Part shown: positions 1 through 38,542 of the stretch, in pieces
Numbering within the stretch: the stretch's first letter is position 1
Layout: every line of letters starts with the position of its first letter
IMG/VR virus record: IMGVR_UViG_2531839531_000011
Direction: 5' to 3' (one strand)
Origin: a virus
Lineage: Duplodnaviria; Heunggongvirae; Uroviricota; Caudoviricetes
Length of the DNA: 38,542 nucleotides
Translations under genes and position numbers: made by a program
Notes under the pieces: generated by a model
Databases searched by the model: none
What the model was told of the DNA's origin: nothing
What the model saw: only the letters and a program-made list of their open reading frames with translations

Positions 1-1020
1 TTAATCCCCCGTGGACACTGCGTGGACACTTACGCCACCTTTCAGCGGATTAAGGGCCACCGCATCCTGCAGGTAATCCGGTGCAAAATGTGCATATGCC
101 ATTGTTTGCTGAATGGTTGCGTGACCAAGAGTCTTCTGAAGCGCAATAATGTTTCCTCCGTTCATCACAAAATGGCTGGCGAACGTATGCCGCAGCACAT
201 GTGCAGCCTGGCCTTTTGGCAAATCGGGCTTAACTCTTTTCAGCGCCAGACAGAATTCCCGGTACTTCACCTCAAACAAGCCGCCTGTTTCTCTGGTTTT
301 GATCGCCTCACAAACTGCCTGCGAAATTGGCACCGTTCTCTTCCGACCATTTTTGGTTTCAAGAAACGTTACACGGTTATGAACTATCTGTTCACCACGA
401 AGCTTACAAGCTTCACTCCAGCGCGCCCCTGTGCTTAAACACAAAAGCGCAACACGCCAGTAGTCGCCCTCCAGTGTATCGAGCAATAGCGCTACTTCCT
501 TCTGGGACAGGAAAGCCATTTCTCGCGGGGATACATAAAGAATAGAAATCCCCCTTACCGGATGCTCTGCATCCCAGAGGCCTATTTTCTTCAGTACGGT
601 AAACATTCCGGATAACCGATTCATGTATCTGTTAGCAGATGACGGTTTCAATCCATCAGCTATCTTTTGAGAACGCCACGCGATAATTTTCAGCTTATCA
701 AGATCCACAGCCTGCATATCAGCGCCAAGCTCATTGATTATGTTGCGCAGTTGTTTTCGGTCTTCTTCCGCCTTACGCCTGTGCTGGCCGTGATACATCC
801 ACCACAACTCAAGCAAATCATTTAGCGTTCGACGATCACGGTAGCCCTGTATATATTCCCGCTTTTCAGCGTTCGCCATGATGTAGCGTTCAGTGGCCAC
901 CGCTACCGATTTTTTGTCAAATACCTTACGTACGCGCTTTCCCTTGCGTCCGTTCGGCCTGATGTCCAGCAAATAACGACCATCTTCGAGCTTCTTAATC
1001 GACATTGCGAAGCCCTCCAA
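1..1020 (-). CDS. int: Tyrosine integrase (P2 Int-like); true start may be the internal Met at MSIKKLEDGRY (~1005)
   Basis: 339-aa ORF; C-terminal catalytic-region residues (ARWSE, HVLRHTFASHF, LGHATIQQTMAYAHF) typical of phage integrases; position at prophage end next to repressor. Confidence 0.9.
   Translation of the reverse strand: MEGFAMSIKKLEDGRYLLDIRPNGRKGKRVRKVFDKKSVAVATERYIMANAEKREYIQGYRDRRTLNDLLELWWMYHGQHRRKAEEDRKQLRNIINELGADMQAVDLDKLKIIAWRSQKIADGLKPSSANRYMNRLSGMFTVLKKIGLWDAEHPVRGISILYVSPREMAFLSQKEVALLLDTLEGDYWRVALLCLSTGARWSEACKLRGEQIVHNRVTFLETKNGRKRTVPISQAVCEAIKTRETGGLFEVKYREFCLALKRVKPDLPKGQAAHVLRHTFASHFVMNGGNIIALQKTLGHATIQQTMAYAHFAPDYLQDAVALNPLKGGVSVHAVSTGD
11..28. other. Candidate attL core: 18-bp sequence gtggacactgcgtggaca, repeated directly (17/18) at 37363..37380; lies inside the last codons of int
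   Basis: Direct repeat seen by eye at both prophage ends; not statistically tested. Confidence 0.35.
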
Positions 1021-5130: not shown

Positions 5131-5307
5131 GTATGCCGTTCTCACAAAAAAACCGCTTGCCATGCCGCAATCAGCCAGGTTACATTTCCGCTGCACCTCA
5201 TAAAACGGGTGCCGGGATTCTCAACCTGCTGACAAACGAAGCGCACAACCGCGCCAGCGGTTTTTTTGTGCGTACTGTATTGCCACGTCTTTTTCGCATC
5301 AGAATTA

Positions 5308-5386
5308 TGGTGGGGCGTACGGGGCCGACTTCGGTCGGGCCGGTTTCTTCGTTTGCCGGTGTTGAGAACCCCGTACGTCTCGCCAC
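5308..5386 (+). ncRNA. Candidate structured RNA element: long-range stem (GGTGGGGCGTACGGGG pairing with CCCCGTACGTCTCGCCACC) enclosing a UUCG-tetraloop hairpin
   Basis: Complementarity seen by eye in a ~320-bp region with no credible ORF; strand and function unknown. Confidence 0.25.
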
Positions 5387-5449
5387 CCCGAGATTCTCAA
5401 CTCTGGTTGGTGAGTATCCAAAAACTCACAAACGAAGAGGCCAAACACC

Positions 5450-23362: not shown

Positions 23363-25729
23363 ATGAGTACCACAACACGAAAATTTAAAACCGTTATCAC
23401 CGATACGGGTGCAAAAAAATTAGCTCAGGCAGCCGCGCCAGATGGTAAGCCTGTCCGCCTGACTCATATGGCCGTGGGCGACGGTGGCGGCACGTTGCCC
23501 ACACCAGACAGTAAGCAGACCCGTCTGGTGCATGAGGTGTGGCGACACACTGTTAATCGCGTCATCCTGGACGCAACACATCAGAACCGCATTATTGCGG
23601 AGCTGGTTATTCCTCCTGAAACGGGCGGATTCTGGATCCGGGAAATTGGTGTATTTGATGAGCACGGCGATTTAATCGCGGTGGGCAATACTGCCGAAAG
23701 TTACAAGCCAGCCGTTGCCGAAGGGTCCGGTCGTGCACAAACGTTTCGCACCATTCTGACCGTATCCAGCACTGCCACCGTGGCGCTTACCGTGGATAAC
23801 ACCATGGTGATGGCCACAGTGGATTACGTGGATGACAAACTGAAAGAGCATGAACGGTCACGACATCACCCGGACGCCTCGCTGACCGCAAAAGGCTTTG
23901 TTCAACTCAGTAGCGCCACTAACAGCGTGTCTGAAACGCAGGCTGCAACGCCGAAAGCAGTAAAGGCAGCATATGACCTGGCTAATGGCAAATACACCGC
24001 ACAGGACGCTACCACTGCGCGGAAAGGGATAGTTCAGCTCAGTAGCGCCACCAACAGCACGTCTGAAACGCAGGCTGCAACGCCGAAAGCAGTAAAGACC
24101 GCGTATGATCTTGCTAACGGTAAATATACTGCGCAGGATGCCAGCACGACGCGAAAAGGCCTTGTCCAGCTCAGTAGCGCCACCAACAGCACGTCTGAAG
24201 CGCAGGCTGCAACGCCGAAAGCAGTAAAGGCCGCGTATGACCTTGCTAGCGCAAAATATACCGCTCAGGACGCCACGACGACACAAAAAGGGATAGTCCA
24301 GCTTAGTAGTGCCACCAACAGCACGTCTGAAACACTGGCCGCGACACCGAAAGCGGTTAAGGCGGTAATGGATGAAACGAACAAGAAAGCGCCTTTAAAC
24401 AGTCCTGCGCTGACCGGAACGCCAACAACGCCAACTGCGCCAAAAGGGACTAATAATACTCAGATCGCAAGCACGGCTTATGTGATGGCCGCGATTGCCG
24501 CACTTGTAGACTCGTCGCCTGACGCACTGAATACGCTGAACGAGCTGGCGGCGGCGCTGGGCAACGACCCGAATTTTGCGACCACCATGACTAACGCGCT
24601 TGCGGGTAAGCAACCGAAGGATACCACCCTGACGGCGCTGGCCGGGCTTGCTACTGCGGCAGACAGGTTTCCGTATTTTACGGGGAATGATGTCGCCAGC
24701 CTGGCAACTCTGACAAAAGTCGGGCGGGATATTCTTGCGAAATCGACCGTTGCCGCCGTTATCGAATACCTCGGTTTACAGGAAACGGTAAATCAGGCTT
24801 CTGGCGCATTACAGAAAAACCAGAACGGCGCAGATATTCCGGGAAAAGATACCTTCACCAAAAATATTGGGGCCTGCCGCGCATATAGCGCATGGCTGAA
24901 TATTGGTGGCGATAGTCAGACCTGGACAACTGCGCAATTTATTTCGTGGCTGGAGAGTCAGGGGGCATTTAACCATCCTTACTGGATGTGCAAAGGCTCA
25001 TGGGCTTATGCAAATAATAAGGTCATTACAGATACAGGTTGCGGAAATATTTGTCTTGCAGGTGCTGTGGTGGAAGTTATTGGCACTCGCGGCGCAATGA
25101 CCATACGCGTTACTACGCCGAGCACGTCCAGCGGCGGCGGAATTACTAACGCTCAATTCACCTATATTAATCATGGTGATGCTTATGCTCCTGGCTGGCG
25201 ACGAGACTACAACACGAAAAACCAGCAGCCTGCATTTGCTTTAGGGCAGACAGGAAGCAGGGTTGCAAATGATAAAGCTGTTGGCTGGAACTGGAATAGC
25301 GGTGTTTATGATGCAGATATCAAAGGCGCAACAGCATTAATACTCCACTTCAATATGAATACGGGGAGTTGCCCTGCTGTACAGTTCCGCGTGAATTACA
25401 GGAACGGCGGTATCCTTTATCGTTCAGCGCGTGATGGTTATGGCTTTGAAGATAACTGGTCAGCGTTTTACACCACAACCTACAAACCCTCTGCGGGGGA
25501 TGTTGGTGCATATACCAAAGCGGAATGTAACTCAAAGTTTATTACAGGTATTCGTCTGGGCGGTCTGTCATCTGTTCAGACATGGAATGGTCCCGGCTGG
25601 TCTGACAGGTCAGGTTATGTCGTTACGGGTTCAGTTAACGGAAACCGTGATGAATTAATTGATACAACTCAGGCAAGGCCAGTTCAGTATTGCATTAATG
25701 GAACGTGGTATAACGCAGGGAGTATTTAA
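23363..25729 (+). CDS. H: Tail fibre protein (P2 gpH-like) in the expressed orientation, with internal tandem repeats
   Basis: 788 aa; conserved N-terminus; ends ...INGTWYNAGSI before the chaperone gene. Confidence 0.9.
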   Translation: MSTTTRKFKTVITDTGAKKLAQAAAPDGKPVRLTHMAVGDGGGTLPTPDSKQTRLVHEVWRHTVNRVILDATHQNRIIAELVIPPETGGFWIREIGVFDEHGDLIAVGNTAESYKPAVAEGSGRAQTFRTILTVSSTATVALTVDNTMVMATVDYVDDKLKEHERSRHHPDASLTAKGFVQLSSATNSVSETQAATPKAVKAAYDLANGKYTAQDATTARKGIVQLSSATNSTSETQAATPKAVKTAYDLANGKYTAQDASTTRKGLVQLSSATNSTSEAQAATPKAVKAAYDLASAKYTAQDATTTQKGIVQLSSATNSTSETLAATPKAVKAVMDETNKKAPLNSPALTGTPTTPTAPKGTNNTQIASTAYVMAAIAALVDSSPDALNTLNELAAALGNDPNFATTMTNALAGKQPKDTTLTALAGLATAADRFPYFTGNDVASLATLTKVGRDILAKSTVAAVIEYLGLQETVNQASGALQKNQNGADIPGKDTFTKNIGACRAYSAWLNIGGDSQTWTTAQFISWLESQGAFNHPYWMCKGSWAYANNKVITDTGCGNICLAGAVVEVIGTRGAMTIRVTTPSTSSGGGITNAQFTYINHGDAYAPGWRRDYNTKNQQPAFALGQTGSRVANDKAVGWNWNSGVYDADIKGATALILHFNMNTGSCPAVQFRVNYRNGGILYRSARDGYGFEDNWSAFYTTTYKPSAGDVGAYTKAECNSKFITGIRLGGLSSVQTWNGPGWSDRSGYVVTGSVNGNRDELIDTTQARPVQYCINGTWYNAGSI
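23894..24375 (+). repeat. Tandem 132-bp (44-aa) tail-fibre repeats, about 3.6 copies (KG-VQLSSATNS-SETQAATPKAVKAAYDLANGKYTAQDATT)
   Basis: Repeats visible in both the H translation and the DNA. Confidence 0.75.
24759..24784. other. gix/hix-like inversion crossover site (TTATCGAATACCTCGGTTTACAGGAA) inside H
   Basis: 26 bp; inverted copy at 27686..27711 differs at two positions; resembles the Gin gix consensus. Confidence 0.7.
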
Positions 25730-35278: not shown

Positions 35279-35539
35279 ATGTTCCGTTGTCCGCTTTGTG
35301 GCGCATCTGCCCGTATCCGCACCAGTCGTCCGGAAAATGATTCAAACACCGTGCGGCAAAAGTATTACCAGTGTAACAACCTGGAATGCGGCGTATGCTT
35401 CTCAACACTGGAAGCCTTCCATAAATTCACATCGAAACACGCCTCCGGCGTTCACTCATCAGAAGGTATTCCGTGGCATGAGCTGCCAGCTTCACACAGG
35501 GGAAACAATCAGATGAGTTTGCCTTTACCTCAGAATTAA
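35279..35539 (+). CDS. ogr: Ogr/Delta-family zinc-finger late transcription activator
   Basis: MFRCPLCGASARIRTSR...YYQCNNLECGVCF matches the recalled Ogr Cys4 pattern. Confidence 0.85.
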   Translation: MFRCPLCGASARIRTSRPENDSNTVRQKYYQCNNLECGVCFSTLEAFHKFTSKHASGVHSSEGIPWHELPASHRGNNQMSLPLPQN

Positions 35540-35627
35540 CAGGCAGAATTGCCGGAGTAACAAAAAAGCGATAGATTACGTGCGGGTGCCTTTCGGCTGA
35601 TGGTCGGAGGGAATACCCGAAGGCCAG

Positions 35628-35813
35628 ATGTGGAAAGGCCCCGAGTCAACTTTAACGTTAACCCGAGGCCCTAACCATCTACCCTTAGCAAGTGATAGGT
35701 TAGCGCCTCCCCGAAAAAGGAGCAAGCGCTATGTCGCAAAAATCGCTTACGGCCATCACGTTCTGCGTGACGGCAATCCTCATCATCTGGATGCTGCACG
35801 GTTCGCTGTGTGA
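35628..35813 (+). CDS. Mok-like overlapping reading frame (modulator of hok translation)
   Basis: 61-aa ORF overlapping the hok-like start in another frame, as in hok/mok/sok loci. Confidence 0.4.
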   Translation: MWKGPESTLTLTRGPNHLPLASDRLAPPRKRSKRYVAKIAYGHHVLRDGNPHHLDAARFAV

Positions 35814-35871
35814 AATACGGATGAGCTTCTGGGGAGCGGAGTTTGCGGCGTTCTTACAGTGTAAGCAGTAA
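35731..35871 (+). CDS. Hok/Gef-family type I toxin (46 aa)
   Basis: MSQKSLTAITFCVTAILIIWMLHGSLCEIRMSFWGAEFAAFLQCKQ; hydrophobic helix plus SLCEIR signature; below ORF-track size cut-off. Confidence 0.7.
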   Translation: MSQKSLTAITFCVTAILIIWMLHGSLCEIRMSFWGAEFAAFLQCKQ

Positions 35872-35880
35872 GGAAACCGC

Positions 35881-35902
35881 GACGGGGGAGTAATCCCCCG
35901 TC
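35881..35902 (+). terminator. Hairpin GACGGGGGA-gtaa-TCCCCCGTC at the 3' end of the hok-like transcript
   Basis: 9-bp perfect stem read directly. Confidence 0.4.
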
Positions 35903-36048
35903 AATCAGTTGCCAGGATAAGGTCGATAAGGCATCCTGTCTCACTCTATACCAGCTAATCAATTGACACATATCAATAAAAAGCCTGATAAAATCAAAAT
36001 GTTTTGTTACAAATGTCAGCTAGTAGAGGGCCAAAGGAGGCAGATTAT

Positions 36049-36381
36049 ATGGCATTAATCAAATGTCCTGAATGCCAGAAAGAGGTGATCGATTCAGTAT
36101 TGTCTTGCCCTGCTTGTGGCAAACAACTGAAAAATCTTAAACGCTCATTTTTTGGAGAACTCATTAAGTGTTTTTTTATATTATTTAATGTTTTTATAAT
36201 CTACACGATTTGTATTGGGCTAAGAGAGGTGGGTGAAATAATAAACAACGCCACATCCGATGCCGAAAAAGCCGGTACAGTTATTGGTACGGGCTTAGGT
36301 TTAATTGCTATTGGAGGCTTATGGGTTATTGGCAATATCATTATCGGAAATTTAGTATTTCTTACTAAACCAAAGGGATAA
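36049..36381 (+). CDS. Zinc-ribbon (CPEC...CPAC) membrane protein, AT-rich cargo gene
   Basis: AGGAGG RBS before MALIKCPECQ; N-terminal Cys4 ribbon followed by two or three hydrophobic helices. Confidence 0.55.
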   Translation: MALIKCPECQKEVIDSVLSCPACGKQLKNLKRSFFGELIKCFFILFNVFIIYTICIGLREVGEIINNATSDAEKAGTVIGTGLGLIAIGGLWVIGNIIIGNLVFLTKPKG

Positions 36382-36385
36382 CAAA

Positions 36386-37279
36386 ATGAAAAATGTGATT
36401 ATTTCTATAGGCGCATCATTTATATCAATTAGTGTGCTACCTGCTCACGCAGCAACTGAGCATAATAACTTTAAGTCATCACTCCAGTGCCGAGCAATAG
36501 AAAATAATAAAGAAAGACTTTCTTGTTATGATAAGTCAATACAACCGACTCGAACGACAGTTGCTGAAAAATTCGAAAGCAGAGATCAATGCCCTGATGA
36601 GAAAGATGATGACAGACGTTTATCTTGTTATGACCGTTTTTTTTCTCCAACATTTACTCCGCCTGTAAGCTCAAAATCTAAAGTGAAACAGCTAGTAACA
36701 ACAGAGACTCAGCAACCAAATCTTTCTGAGATATCTAAATGTCGAGCAGAAAACGATAAAGAAACTAGAGTAAACTGCTACGATAAACTATTTCCACAGG
36801 AAAAAGCTACGCAATCTAAATCAAAATTAGAGAAAGCCACAGACTCAGGAAAATGGCACACATCCATTACTACATCGCCAATTGATGATTCGAAAAATGT
36901 AATTTTATCGTTAGAAAGTGATGATTATATAAGAACTCCATTTGGAGAAGCGGTTACCCCTACTCTGTTTATAGCTTGCCGAGAAAAGAAAACCGAAGTA
37001 TTTCTTAATTGGGATGTATATTTAGGCCTTGAACAAACCAGCATGCTGTATCGCCTTGATAAACAGAAAGCAGTTGAGCGAAACTGGCTAGTATCTACAG
37101 ATACAAAGGCTGTTTTTTATAAAGGCAATGACATTAACTTCATCAGAAAACTAGCCAACTCAAACAAAATGTATGCAAGAATAACCCCTTATAATGAAAG
37201 CCCTGTAAGTGCAACTTTCAATTTAAACGGCCTGTCAACCACGCTAAAACCGCTTCAAGAAGCCTGTAACTGGAAATAG
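36386..37279 (+). CDS. Secreted protein with three Cys-containing repeats (C-x10-R-L/V-S/N-CYDK/R) and a C-terminal domain, AT-rich cargo gene
   Basis: 297 aa; signal peptide ...VLPAHAAT; repeats at RLSCYDK, RLSCYDR, RVNCYDK. Confidence 0.6.
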   Translation: MKNVIISIGASFISISVLPAHAATEHNNFKSSLQCRAIENNKERLSCYDKSIQPTRTTVAEKFESRDQCPDEKDDDRRLSCYDRFFSPTFTPPVSSKSKVKQLVTTETQQPNLSEISKCRAENDKETRVNCYDKLFPQEKATQSKSKLEKATDSGKWHTSITTSPIDDSKNVILSLESDDYIRTPFGEAVTPTLFIACREKKTEVFLNWDVYLGLEQTSMLYRLDKQKAVERNWLVSTDTKAVFYKGNDINFIRKLANSNKMYARITPYNESPVSATFNLNGLSTTLKPLQEACNWK

Positions 37280-37309
37280 TATAAATCATGCGGCTAAGCC
37301 ACAATCACA

Positions 37310-37347
37310 GATAACACAAAGCCCGTGAAAACGGGCTTTGTGTTATC
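37310..37347. terminator. Strong bidirectional terminator: 16-bp perfect inverted repeat GATAACACAAAGCCCG-tgaaaa-CGGGCTTTGTGTTATC
   Basis: Read directly, just after the cargo genes. Confidence 0.6.
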
Positions 37348-37362
37348 TATAACTCGAAAATG

Positions 37363-37380
37363 TGGTCACTGCGTGGACAT
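37363..37380. other. Candidate attR core (gtggtcactgcgtggaca), direct repeat of 11..28
   Basis: 17/18 match to the sequence at the int 3' end; lies between cargo genes and host flk. Confidence 0.35.
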
Positions 37381-37546
37381 GCGCCGATACAAATCCTTTT
37401 ATATCAAAAAGTTAAATCAACATCTTTTTCATCAACAAGGATTTTCACGTTTGTGTTACCTGTATGAGACGAGAGTTAACCGGACAAGTGTGCCATAATC
37501 TCGCGGCCAGGCATACTTGCGAAGATTTCAGGTATAAGGATACGTA

Positions 37547-38542
37547 ATGATACAACCTATTTCCGGCCCTCCTCCTGGGCAACCACCAGGTCAGGGAGAT
37601 AACCTGCCGTCTGGCGCGGGCAATCAGCCTTTATCCAGTCAGCAACGTACTTCGCTGGAAAGCTTAATGACGAAAGTGACCTCACTGACGCAACAGCAAA
37701 GAGCAGAACTGTGGGCGGGTATCAGGCACGATATTGGTCTGTCGGGAGATTCACCGCTGCTTTCGCGTCACTTCCCTGCCGCTGAGCATAATCTGGCGCA
37801 ACGTCTGCTGGCCGCGCAAAAAAGCCATTCTGCCCGCCAGCTTTTAGCGCAATTAGGGGAGTATTTACGTCTGGGGAATAATCGTCAGGCGGTCACGGAT
37901 TATATCCGTCATAACTTTGGTCAGACGCCGCTGAATCAGCTCTCACCGGAGCAATTAAAAACCATTCTCACCCTGTTGCAGGAAGGGAAGATGGTTATTC
38001 CGCAACCACAGCAGCGCGAGGCGACCGACCGTCCTTTATTACCGGCGGAGCACAATGCGCTAAAACAGCTGGTGACCAAACTTGCGGCGGCAACGGGGGA
38101 ACCCAGCAAACAGATCTGGCAATCGATGCTGGAACTTTCCGGGGTGAAAGATGGCGAGTTAATTCCAGCGAAACTGTTTAACCATCTGGTGACCTGGCTA
38201 CAGGCGCGTCAGACGCTAAGCCAGCAAAATACGCCGACGCTGGAATCACTACAGATGACGCTAAAACAACCTTTAGATGCCAGTGAACTGGCGGCGTTAT
38301 CGGCATATATCCAGCAAAAATATGATCTTTCTGCGCAATCATCGCTTTCTTCTGCCCAGGCCGAGGATATTCTTAATCAGCTTTATCAACGGCGGGTTAA
38401 AGGGATTGATCCGCGTGTTATGCAACCGCTGCTTAATCCTTTTCCACCGATGATGGACACGTTGCAAAATATGGCAACGCGTCCCGCGCTGTGGATACTG
38501 TTAGTCGCGATTATCCTGATGCTGGTCTGGCTGGTTCGTTAA
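37547..38542 (+). CDS. flk: Host flagellar regulator Flk (C-terminally membrane-anchored)
   Basis: 331 aa; N-terminus MIQPISGPPPGQPPGQGDNLPSG and C-terminal hydrophobic anchor match my recollection of E. coli Flk. Confidence 0.75.
   Translation: MIQPISGPPPGQPPGQGDNLPSGAGNQPLSSQQRTSLESLMTKVTSLTQQQRAELWAGIRHDIGLSGDSPLLSRHFPAAEHNLAQRLLAAQKSHSARQLLAQLGEYLRLGNNRQAVTDYIRHNFGQTPLNQLSPEQLKTILTLLQEGKMVIPQPQQREATDRPLLPAEHNALKQLVTKLAAATGEPSKQIWQSMLELSGVKDGELIPAKLFNHLVTWLQARQTLSQQNTPTLESLQMTLKQPLDASELAALSAYIQQKYDLSAQSSLSSAQAEDILNQLYQRRVKGIDPRVMQPLLNPFPPMMDTLQNMATRPALWILLVAIILMLVWLVR

Follow-up and report, generated by a model that had tools for sequence, protein, structure and literature searches.

The locus downstream of ogr in the window, by which we mean the whole stretch of 38,542 nucleotides of viral DNA that was analysed, is very probably a complete hok/Sok-type type I toxin–antitoxin module, built around a 46-residue Hok subfamily ('cluster 72') and carried as cargo by a P88-like prophage. 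Hok/Sok modules are textbook type I toxin–antitoxin systems, and the module itself is an ordinary element of an already catalogued kind; its sole unusual point appears to be that no mok reading frame is conserved in the 46-residue subfamily. The locus is more than a chance arrangement of bases, as the 421 bases around it are widespread and its ORF is under purifying selection. The initial annotation had labelled it Hok/Mok/Sok-like. The Hok and Sok parts of that label, together with the reading as prophage cargo, agree with the Pfam and RefSeq assignments, with RNA helices that covary between relatives and with conserved promoter-like hexamers on the minus strand; the Mok part does not find support. 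The features of the module are collected in Table 1.

The 46-residue ORF had been picked out by its Hok/Gef signature, and the family searches confirm this assignment. The peptide, MSQKSLTAITFCVTAILIIWMLHGSLCEIRMSFWGAEFAAFLQCKQ, matches PF01848 (HOK_GEF) over residues 7–44 at 29.9 bits, where the gathering score is 22 (E 4e-7), and PHROG 251, 'MokW-like host killing' (E 1e-22), and is labelled WP_000078916.1, Hok/Gef family protein, in RefSeq. Its NCBIfam matches all fall under their cut-offs; the best-scoring curated model, that of HokA of E. coli K-12 (NF007290), covers residues 6–45 including the EFAAFL-C-K tail and gives 34 bits (E 2e-8) where 89 are needed, so that the peptide is not a HokA equivalog. 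PADLOC holds no model for the peptide or for two neighbouring cargo proteins. A protein search returned 67 homologues, and all those with a source name are called Hok/Gef; the hosts of the named homologues are E. coli, Shigella, Salmonella and Klebsiella. The full-length homologues are 46 residues long, and M1, Q3, K4, G24, C27, A36, E37, A39, A40, L42, Q43, C44 and K45 are invariant among them. All 99 copies that were recovered carry an intact ORF, and the dN/dS values of 0.12–0.38 obtained against divergent copies show that the ORF is maintained as a protein by purifying selection. An identical peptide is listed as 72_1621, cloned for toxicity assays as plasmid LRP137, in Table S2 of the 2026 catalogue of Hok proteins by Escalera-Maurer et al. 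(bioRxiv 10.1101/2025.08.07.668861). In that study, 42 of the 45 homologues tested were toxic when expressed from an artificial promoter and Shine–Dalgarno sequence, not from the native leader, and 72_1621 is not among the three exceptions (19_179, 60_1482 and 69_1540). Since 72_1621 belongs to the published panel, the induced-expression toxicity assay that the initial annotation had proposed is already available, as a preprint.

Table 1. Features of the hok/Sok-type locus. Positions are those of the window; pairings, RNA ends and regulatory elements are predicted.
Feature	Position	Strand	Description	Basis
hok promoter (candidate)	35549–35577	+	−35 TTGCCG 35549–35554, 17-nt spacer, −10 TAGATT 35572–35577	Read directly
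Full-length hok mRNA	35584–35937	+	Minimum extent	Rfam leader start, hokW homology, fold
tac	35584–35598	+	5′ element; partner fbi (inactive full-length form) or 35630–35642 (active truncated form)	
61-aa ORF	35628–35813	+	mok-like geometry in this allele; other frame than hok	
ucb-like element GUGGAAAGGCCCC	35630–35642	+	tac partner when truncated; sequesters GAGG when full-length	Folds
Sok-like antisense RNA (predicted)	35634–35689	−	About 56 nt	Ends by alignment with annotated sokW of 933W
GAGGC	35665–35669	+	Homologous to the mok Shine–Dalgarno of R1 and hokW	CGAG[G/A]C in 38/38 loci
Leader segment with predicted Sok-recognition loop	35683–35696	+	Pairs 3′ UTR in full-length form	
Sok promoter (putative)	35697–35725	−	−35 TTGCTC 35725–35720, 17-nt spacer, −10 TAACCT 35702–35697	Conservation, sokW alignment
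dcb-like GCCUC(C)	35705–35710	+	Pairs GAGGC (truncated); CUCC pairs hok Shine–Dalgarno (full-length)	
hok Shine–Dalgarno	35717–35722	+	AAGGAG	Read directly
hok	35731–35871	+	46-aa Hok/Gef-family membrane toxin	Pfam, RefSeq WP_000078916.1, dN/dS
3′ stem-loop	35881–35902	+	9 bp, arms 35881–35889 / 35894–35902, GUAA loop, no U-tract	
3′ UTR arm	35904–35916	+	Pairs leader 35683–35696 in full-length form	
fbi (fold-back inhibition element)	35921–35936	+	GGUCGA-U-AAGGCAUCC, complementary to tac	

Of 5426 complete E. coli genomes, 1750 have a match to the same 421 bases around the locus, as do 198 phage records. In E. coli NCCP 15734 these bases are 99.8% identical and the ORF is annotated as 'Hok/Gef family protein'. 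Copies in P88-like phages (Xuanwuvirus, Peduoviridae) are 93–95% identical, and there too hok follows ogr; in Salmonella P2-like prophages, one to three tandem hok loci occupy the same position after ogr. This shared position sustains the view of the locus as prophage cargo. Moreover, hok genes are known to be enriched in prophages, and phages with two or three copies have been documented (bioRxiv 10.1101/2025.08.07.668861). Stx phages such as 933W carry an 82.5% identical copy, unannotated, that adjoins lom. We considered whether this copy could be hokW and rejected the identification: the hokW start derived from the published primers is absent from it, and hokW proper is at another place in 933W. 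A scan of contigs gave six loci and a scan of viral records identical peptides only, the diversity of the set coming from look-ups of exact proteins; the RNA alignment used below comprises 38 distinct full-length loci that are 72–99% identical.

A consensus scan for promoters and terminators called no promoter on either strand, both of the proposed promoters being weak matches; homology and conservation were therefore used to position them. The candidate hok promoter agrees with the consensus at 8 of 12 positions, one short of the 9 of 12 set as the threshold of the scanner. In 35 of the 38 relatives its −10 element reads TAGATT, TAGAAT or TAAATT and ends 6 nt upstream of GGGTGCC, and the TTGCC of the −35 element is kept in the 933W copy. 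Transcription would start at the G of GGGUGCC (35584), as both the Rfam match to the hok leader and the validated hokW leader begin at the homologous GGGTGC. At the other end, sequence conservation across the relatives ceases near 35944. The 357-nt RNA from 35584 to 35940 folds at −149.8 kcal/mol (z = −5.4 relative to shuffles), and its helices covary across the 38 loci, in keeping with the long structured leader described at the outset. The functional unit extends from 35549, where the promoter starts, to about 35937. The span given to the locus in the initial annotation, 35560–35902, does contain every feature that had been described, but the unit is longer on both sides, with a promoter that begins at 35549 and an fbi element that reaches 35936. 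The fbi element lies wholly outside those earlier limits.

Two mutually alternative sets of pairings emerge from the folds and from the alignment. The tac–fbi helix, of 15 bp, is part of the minimum free energy fold; it is 96.7% paired across the 38 loci, and in four of its pairs both bases have changed. When the 3′ end is removed in the prediction, the 5′ bases re-pair with 35630–35642, and this tac–ucb helix is 96.8% paired and likewise has four pairs in which both bases have changed. One and the same set of tac columns, then, covaries with two partners, fbi and 35630–35642. Gultyaev, Franch and Gerdes are said to have recognised in 1997 that one segment covarying with two partners is a signature of the hok mRNA family. 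The pairing of GAGGC with GCCUC is invariant across the 38 loci save for one compensatory change to GAGAC:GUCUC, and since the bases of GCCUC(C) that would pair with GAGGC overlap those that would pair with the hok Shine–Dalgarno, the two pairings should be mutually exclusive. The leader segment 35683–35696 pairs with 35904–35916 in a helix of 11 bp that is 89% paired and has five pairs changed on both sides, and the aligned loop that we predict to be recognised by Sok retains a motif of the YUNR type (CUUA, CUAA, CUUG and others). Lastly, the 9-bp hairpin that had been noted after the ORF is there, with its GUAA loop; it is 98.8% paired across the 38 loci, and five of its nine pairs are changed on both sides. 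By analogy with R1, this stem-loop probably serves to protect the processed mRNA at its 3′ end rather than as a terminator (PMC9841398). The terminator scan called it solely as a minus-strand terminator-like site, of which shuffled sequences yield about as many, and found no terminator downstream of fbi.

Taken over all helices, which were themselves obtained from the window sequence, 94% of the cells in the 38 sequences are paired; in slid controls the figure is about 40%. The observed covariation was reached by none of 500 shuffles, and most of it falls between the E. coli and the Salmonella/Klebsiella clades, so that few independent events are represented. The GGAG of the hok ribosome-binding site lies 12–13 nt upstream of the hok ATG in the relatives. 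Truncation is predicted to leave the region of translation start more accessible in 34 of 36 loci when set against the full-length form, and in 35 of 36 when set against the Sok-blocked form. The mean probability that the hok Shine–Dalgarno is unpaired, however, is just 0.02 in the full-length, 0.08 in the truncated and 0.02 in the Sok-blocked form, an opening consistent in direction but small, which is why we do not use it as strong evidence.

An Rfam scan of the whole window at gathering thresholds reported neither the hok nor the sok family, its only hits being C4 and isrK, elsewhere in the window. In a permissive scan, RF01794 ('sok') matches 35584–35744 on the plus strand with 42.7 bits against a gathering score of 59 (E 3e-8 locally). 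The same model gives 35.6–51.7 bits with other members of the 46-residue subfamily and 113.5 bits with hokW, which it matches on the hok-sense strand from the start of the mRNA to the hokW ATG. Because RF01794 describes the hok-sense strand, it is in practice a model of the hok leader. Thus, the search for Sok on the minus strand of the leader that the initial annotation had suggested does return the leader, but under threshold and on the plus strand.

The case for an antisense gene rests instead on the minus strand itself. The putative Sok promoter is under the threshold of the scanner; its conserved hexamers align with the annotated sokW promoter of 933W/Sp5, the one that has been mutated. 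Takada et al. silenced sokW by substitutions around its −10 element, which validated the control by Sok at that locus (Takada et al., 2021; PMC8621323), and to judge from the mutagenic primer the change was from TAACC to GAGCC. In our alignment, 36 loci have TAACCT as their −10 element and the other two TATCCT, and the spacer is of 17 nt in all 38. The RNA predicted to start from this promoter has a single-stranded 5′ tail of 13 nt and a 16-bp stem-loop followed by UUU; it folds at −30.1 kcal/mol (z = −5.0) and has the architecture of SokW, although SokW, at 71 nt, is longer than the approximately 56 nt predicted here and has a longer hairpin. The initial annotation had held that the locus would be in doubt if neither antisense RNA nor leader structure were conserved; we find the Sok hexamers in 38 of 38 loci and helices that covary. 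Sok is known to bind only the processed form of hok mRNA. The predicted probability that its target region, 35675–35690, is unpaired rises from 0.29 in the full-length to 0.62 in the truncated form, which fits this rule.

In most respects the locus resembles hok/mok/sok of plasmid R1, the system of the Gerdes laboratory whose canonical model is reviewed in PMC9841398. Both have a Hok/Gef toxin with an SLCEIR motif, pairing of the mRNA ends through tac and fbi, alternative tac–ucb and GAGG–dcb pairings, a 3′ stem-loop whose protective role is assigned here by analogy (PMC9841398), and an antisense Sok gene, here putative, with a promoter just upstream of the hok Shine–Dalgarno on the other strand and a hairpin RNA with a 5′ tail, here predicted. 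Unlike R1, the toxin has 46 rather than 52 residues, with an invariant C-terminal Cys; no start codon follows the conserved GAGG and no overlapping ORF is conserved; the leader is under the Rfam threshold; and the locus is borne by a prophage and not by a plasmid. The hokW-mokW-sokW locus of 933W/Sp5 is likewise prophage-borne, and the two leaders align at GGGTGC at +1, at AAAGCCCC, at GAGGC, at the TAACC of the Sok −10 element and at GCACCC at the 3′ end. It is nonetheless a different locus, as the peptides share 31% identity over 35 residues, with no orthology between them, and 933W carries both at separate places, with hokW, mokW and sokW annotated and the lom-adjacent copy not. Moreover, an in-frame mokW begins 8 nt past the GAGG of hokW, whereas there is no such start here.

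On this basis, the module may work as follows. The promoter TTGCCG-17-TAGATT would direct the synthesis, from 35584, of a stable hok mRNA 354 nt or more in length. In the full-length RNA, tac would pair with fbi, the Sok-target region with the 3′ UTR, and the hok ribosome-binding site would be held in a local hairpin, so that, as we propose, the RNA would be neither translated nor bound by Sok. Slow trimming of the 3′ end back to the 35881–35902 stem-loop would remove fbi; the 5′ end could then pair with 35630–35642 and GAGGC (35665–35669) with GCCUC (35705–35709), exposing the loop recognised by the 5′ tail of Sok. Sok, an unstable antisense transcript about 56 nt long that would be made from TTGCTC-17-TAACCT, would pair with 35634–35689 and silence the mRNA by cleavage of the duplex, presumably an RNase III step, and probably also by allowing CUCC to re-capture the hok ribosome-binding site. 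Should the synthesis of Sok stop, through loss of the prophage, shut-off of transcription by an infecting phage, or induction of the prophage, Hok would be made, and the 46-residue protein would insert in the inner membrane and kill or arrest the cell.

What the module does for the prophage can be approached through its relatives, from which both roles put forward initially, stabilisation of the prophage and abortive infection, are plausible. It is also conceivable, although we consider it somewhat unlikely, that the same module aids the lysis of the phage's own host at induction. This is the part played by hokW-sokW in prophage Sp5, where sokW is gone after treatment with mitomycin C, HokW precedes endolysin, and the phage yield is halved in the absence of the locus (Takada et al., 2021; PMC8621323). 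The 933W/Sp5 genome also holds a copy of the 46-residue subfamily, the one adjoining lom; however, the low identity of HokW to the present peptide, and the different regulation of a lambdoid phage, weaken the parallel. Furthermore, Pecota and Wood are reported to have observed in 1996 that hok/sok of R1 excludes phage T4, which leaves a role in defence equally open.

Where the locus departs from R1 is in the mok gene. In R1, translation of mok, from an ATG that lies 8 nt past GAGG, up to the hok Shine–Dalgarno is required for the translation of hok (PMC9841398). The initial annotation had pointed to a 61-residue mok-like ORF that overlaps hok in another frame. The ORF is present but it is not conserved, and its role as a mok is unsupported. 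Could it be a working mok that opens the hok start and is blocked by Sok, making the locus a canonical three-gene system? Its geometry in this allele would allow it: a GAAGG lies 5 nt upstream of the ATG at 35628, and the frame reads across the hok Shine–Dalgarno and start and ends inside hok, as the requirement in R1 would have it; 4 nt separate the ATG from the end of the duplex predicted with Sok, a distance within the footprint of a ribosome; and the truncated form is predicted to leave this ATG exposed, its probability of being unpaired being 0.66. Yet the ATG is not at the position homologous to that of mok, for it lies 37 nt before GAGG and not 8 nt after it as in R1 and hokW. The ORF, moreover, has no match in Pfam, NCBIfam or PHROG, and is common only to near-identical alleles, indels or stops breaking it elsewhere: frameshifts end it after 17 codons in P88_4B11 (95% identical) and after 8 codons in the 933W copy (82%), and the copies in Salmonella and Klebsiella are without its ATG. 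That the ATG is retained in the E. coli copies is explained by its overlap with the conserved tac partner. We regard the three-gene reading as unlikely, and the 61-residue ORF, judged on its sequence, is probably not a functional part of the module.

No other frame takes its place. There is no ATG, GTG or TTG 4–13 nt downstream of GAGG in any of the 38 loci, while the same search applied to 933W recovers the mokW ATG 8 nt past GAGG. A leader ORF crossing the hok start is missing in 16 of the 38 distinct relatives, and in 12 of 38 stops occur in all three frames before the hok Shine–Dalgarno. We also considered, and rejected, a mok that starts from a near-cognate codon past GAGG, or one that merely reaches the hok Shine–Dalgarno; no frame is consistently open. 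The Hok catalogue covers the coding sequence only and explicitly sets aside Mok, Sok and the structure of the mRNA (bioRxiv 10.1101/2025.08.07.668861). The absence of mok is therefore not settled in it, and both the RNA anatomy and the missing conserved mok described here are additions to what it reports for cluster 72.

Tentatively, then, and with rather less confidence than we attach to the identity of the module, we suggest that the 46-residue Hok subfamily may work without a mok leader peptide: the R1-type switch would be kept, GAGG would be a structural element only, and Sok would control the translation of hok directly. In R1, by comparison, mok is the route of action of Sok (PMC9841398). 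Possibly, the GAGGC:GCCUC pairing in the processed mRNA frees the hok ribosome-binding site from the CUCC anti-Shine–Dalgarno, and the binding of Sok reverses this; when the Sok target is blocked in silico, the hok Shine–Dalgarno hairpin re-forms. If so, the same RNA switch can control a toxin directly, without a coupled upstream ORF. It is very unlikely that the locus is instead a silenced relic that does nothing because, without mok, the native mRNA never gives rise to the peptide: a mok that is not conserved, a hok Shine–Dalgarno predicted to be paired in every state, and a literature on toxicity that rests on an artificial promoter and Shine–Dalgarno, not the native leader, would accord with such a state, but an ORF intact in 99 of 99 copies with a dN/dS of 0.12–0.38, promoters, tac, fbi, ucb, dcb and Sok hairpin conserved with compensatory changes between genera, and a locus that keeps its position across diverged P2-like phages, where it is even triplicated, are not patterns expected of a dead locus. 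Pedersen and Gerdes are said to have found, in 1999, several of the chromosomal hok loci of E. coli K-12 in a silenced state of this type.

For biology at large these results change little, as the exact peptide is catalogued and reported to be toxic, and the enrichment in prophages is documented. A wider interest attaches to the existence of a widespread Hok subfamily that is apparently without mok, although mok of R1 is needed for the translation of Hok. For annotation, the unit from 35549 to about 35937 includes a predicted antisense RNA gene that is unannotated, and the Rfam 'sok' model, at its threshold, misses the 46-residue subfamily, all members tested scoring below it. Moreover, automated prophage boundaries that end at the hok stop codon remove an essential 3′ element.

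The window itself is an E. coli P2-like prophage, of the P88-like group (Xuanwuvirus), inserted at pdxB-flk. The hok locus lies between ogr (35279–35539, Pfam Ogr_Delta) and a gene for a zinc-ribbon membrane protein, and two further cargo genes separate it from attR. The att core is the 20-nt TTTTCATCAACAAGGATTTT at 37426–37445; its twin is found, in a matching genome, next to the start of pdxB, beyond the integrase and outside the window, and in genomes free of the element the homology begins at window position 37426, in the pdxB-flk spacer. The hok locus is therefore about 1.5 kb inside attR. It had been placed between ogr and the prophage end, inside candidate att repeats; it is indeed inside the prophage, but the repeat that was probably used for that placement is not the att core. 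That 18-nt repeat, at 11–28 and 37362–37379, was considered as the core and rejected in favour of 37426–37445. It flanks the att core and resembles the arm sites of an integrase.

The Rfam family RF01794, although named for the sok antitoxin, matches the hok-sense strand of the window from the start of the mRNA to the toxin ATG (35584-35744), and its match in the validated hokW locus (L097, 703-877) likewise lies on the hok-sense strand and spans the interval between the mRNA start and the hokW ATG. Thus, RF01794 models the hok leader and not the antisense RNA. The same model matches, separately, the leader of each of three copies of the 46-aa hok locus arranged in tandem, with a spacing of 498 bp, in two Salmonella enterica contigs; these copies have diverged from one another. 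A further locus of the 46-aa subfamily, found next to lom in phage 933W and also in other Stx phages, is distinct from hokW-mokW-sokW and carries no annotation in the original 933W record (AF125520.1).

At the other end of the gene, the final 13 codons of hok and the adjoining GAAACCGC (window 35840-35879) are nearly invariant in nucleotide sequence between E. coli, Salmonella and Klebsiella. This near-invariance extends to synonymous sites and suggests that a constraint at the RNA level is added to that on the protein. Many of the prophage contigs predicted in IMG/VR, such as L014, L016 and L020 (locus length 1641), end exactly 3 nt past the stop codon of hok. The hok 3' UTR is thus split by boundaries that were set automatically, with loss of the 3' hairpin and of fbi, the fold-back inhibition element.

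The prophage itself extends further. A 20-nt sequence, TTTTCATCAACAAGGATTTT, appears to form its attachment core; it is present at window 37426-37445, where homology with prophage-free E. coli genomes starts, and again in the matching E. coli genome (L098, 1518-1537, minus strand), past the integrase and outside the window, immediately 5' of the pdxB start codon. The GTGGACA-N4-GTGGACA repeats close to each prophage end, one of which falls within the 3' end of int, were rejected as the core. In the circular form they lie on either side of it, and they are similar to the consensus for arm sites of the P2 integrase, TGTGGACA. Two genes in the hok-attR interval, coding for a zinc-ribbon membrane protein and a VasI/TagO-like protein, are additional cargo. 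PADLOC returned no match for either gene, and window 35900-37560 is uncommon in E. coli, with at least 80% of it present in 237 genomes out of 5426.

Features in the window and in the comparison loci
Feature	Location	Strand	Match or context
isrK Hfq-binding RNA	window 5193-5267	+	Rfam, 62 bits (cut-off 50)
C4 antisense RNA	window 5303-5390	+	Rfam, 79.2 bits (cut-off 45)
Zinc-ribbon membrane protein gene	window 36049-36381	+	PHROG 6586
VasI/TagO-like type VI secretion-associated protein gene	window 36386-37279	+	Pfam VasI, E 1e-24
GTGGACA-N4-GTGGACA repeats	window 11-28 and 37362-37379		close to each prophage end
Tandem hok copies (Salmonella)	L095 and L096, 1505-1645, 2003-2143, 2501-2641		immediately after ogr, P2-like prophage
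Second hok locus, 46-aa subfamily (phage 933W)	L003 2001-2375 = AF125520.1 45491-45865		adjoins lom

Elsewhere in the window, isrK and C4, which are adjacent and both exceed their Rfam thresholds, are a P1/P7-type immunity RNA pair within a P2-like prophage. A repeat with a period of 132 nt (three copies, 84-86% identical; window 23890-24361, plus strand) is contained in a 788-aa ORF (23363-25729) that is probably a tail fibre.
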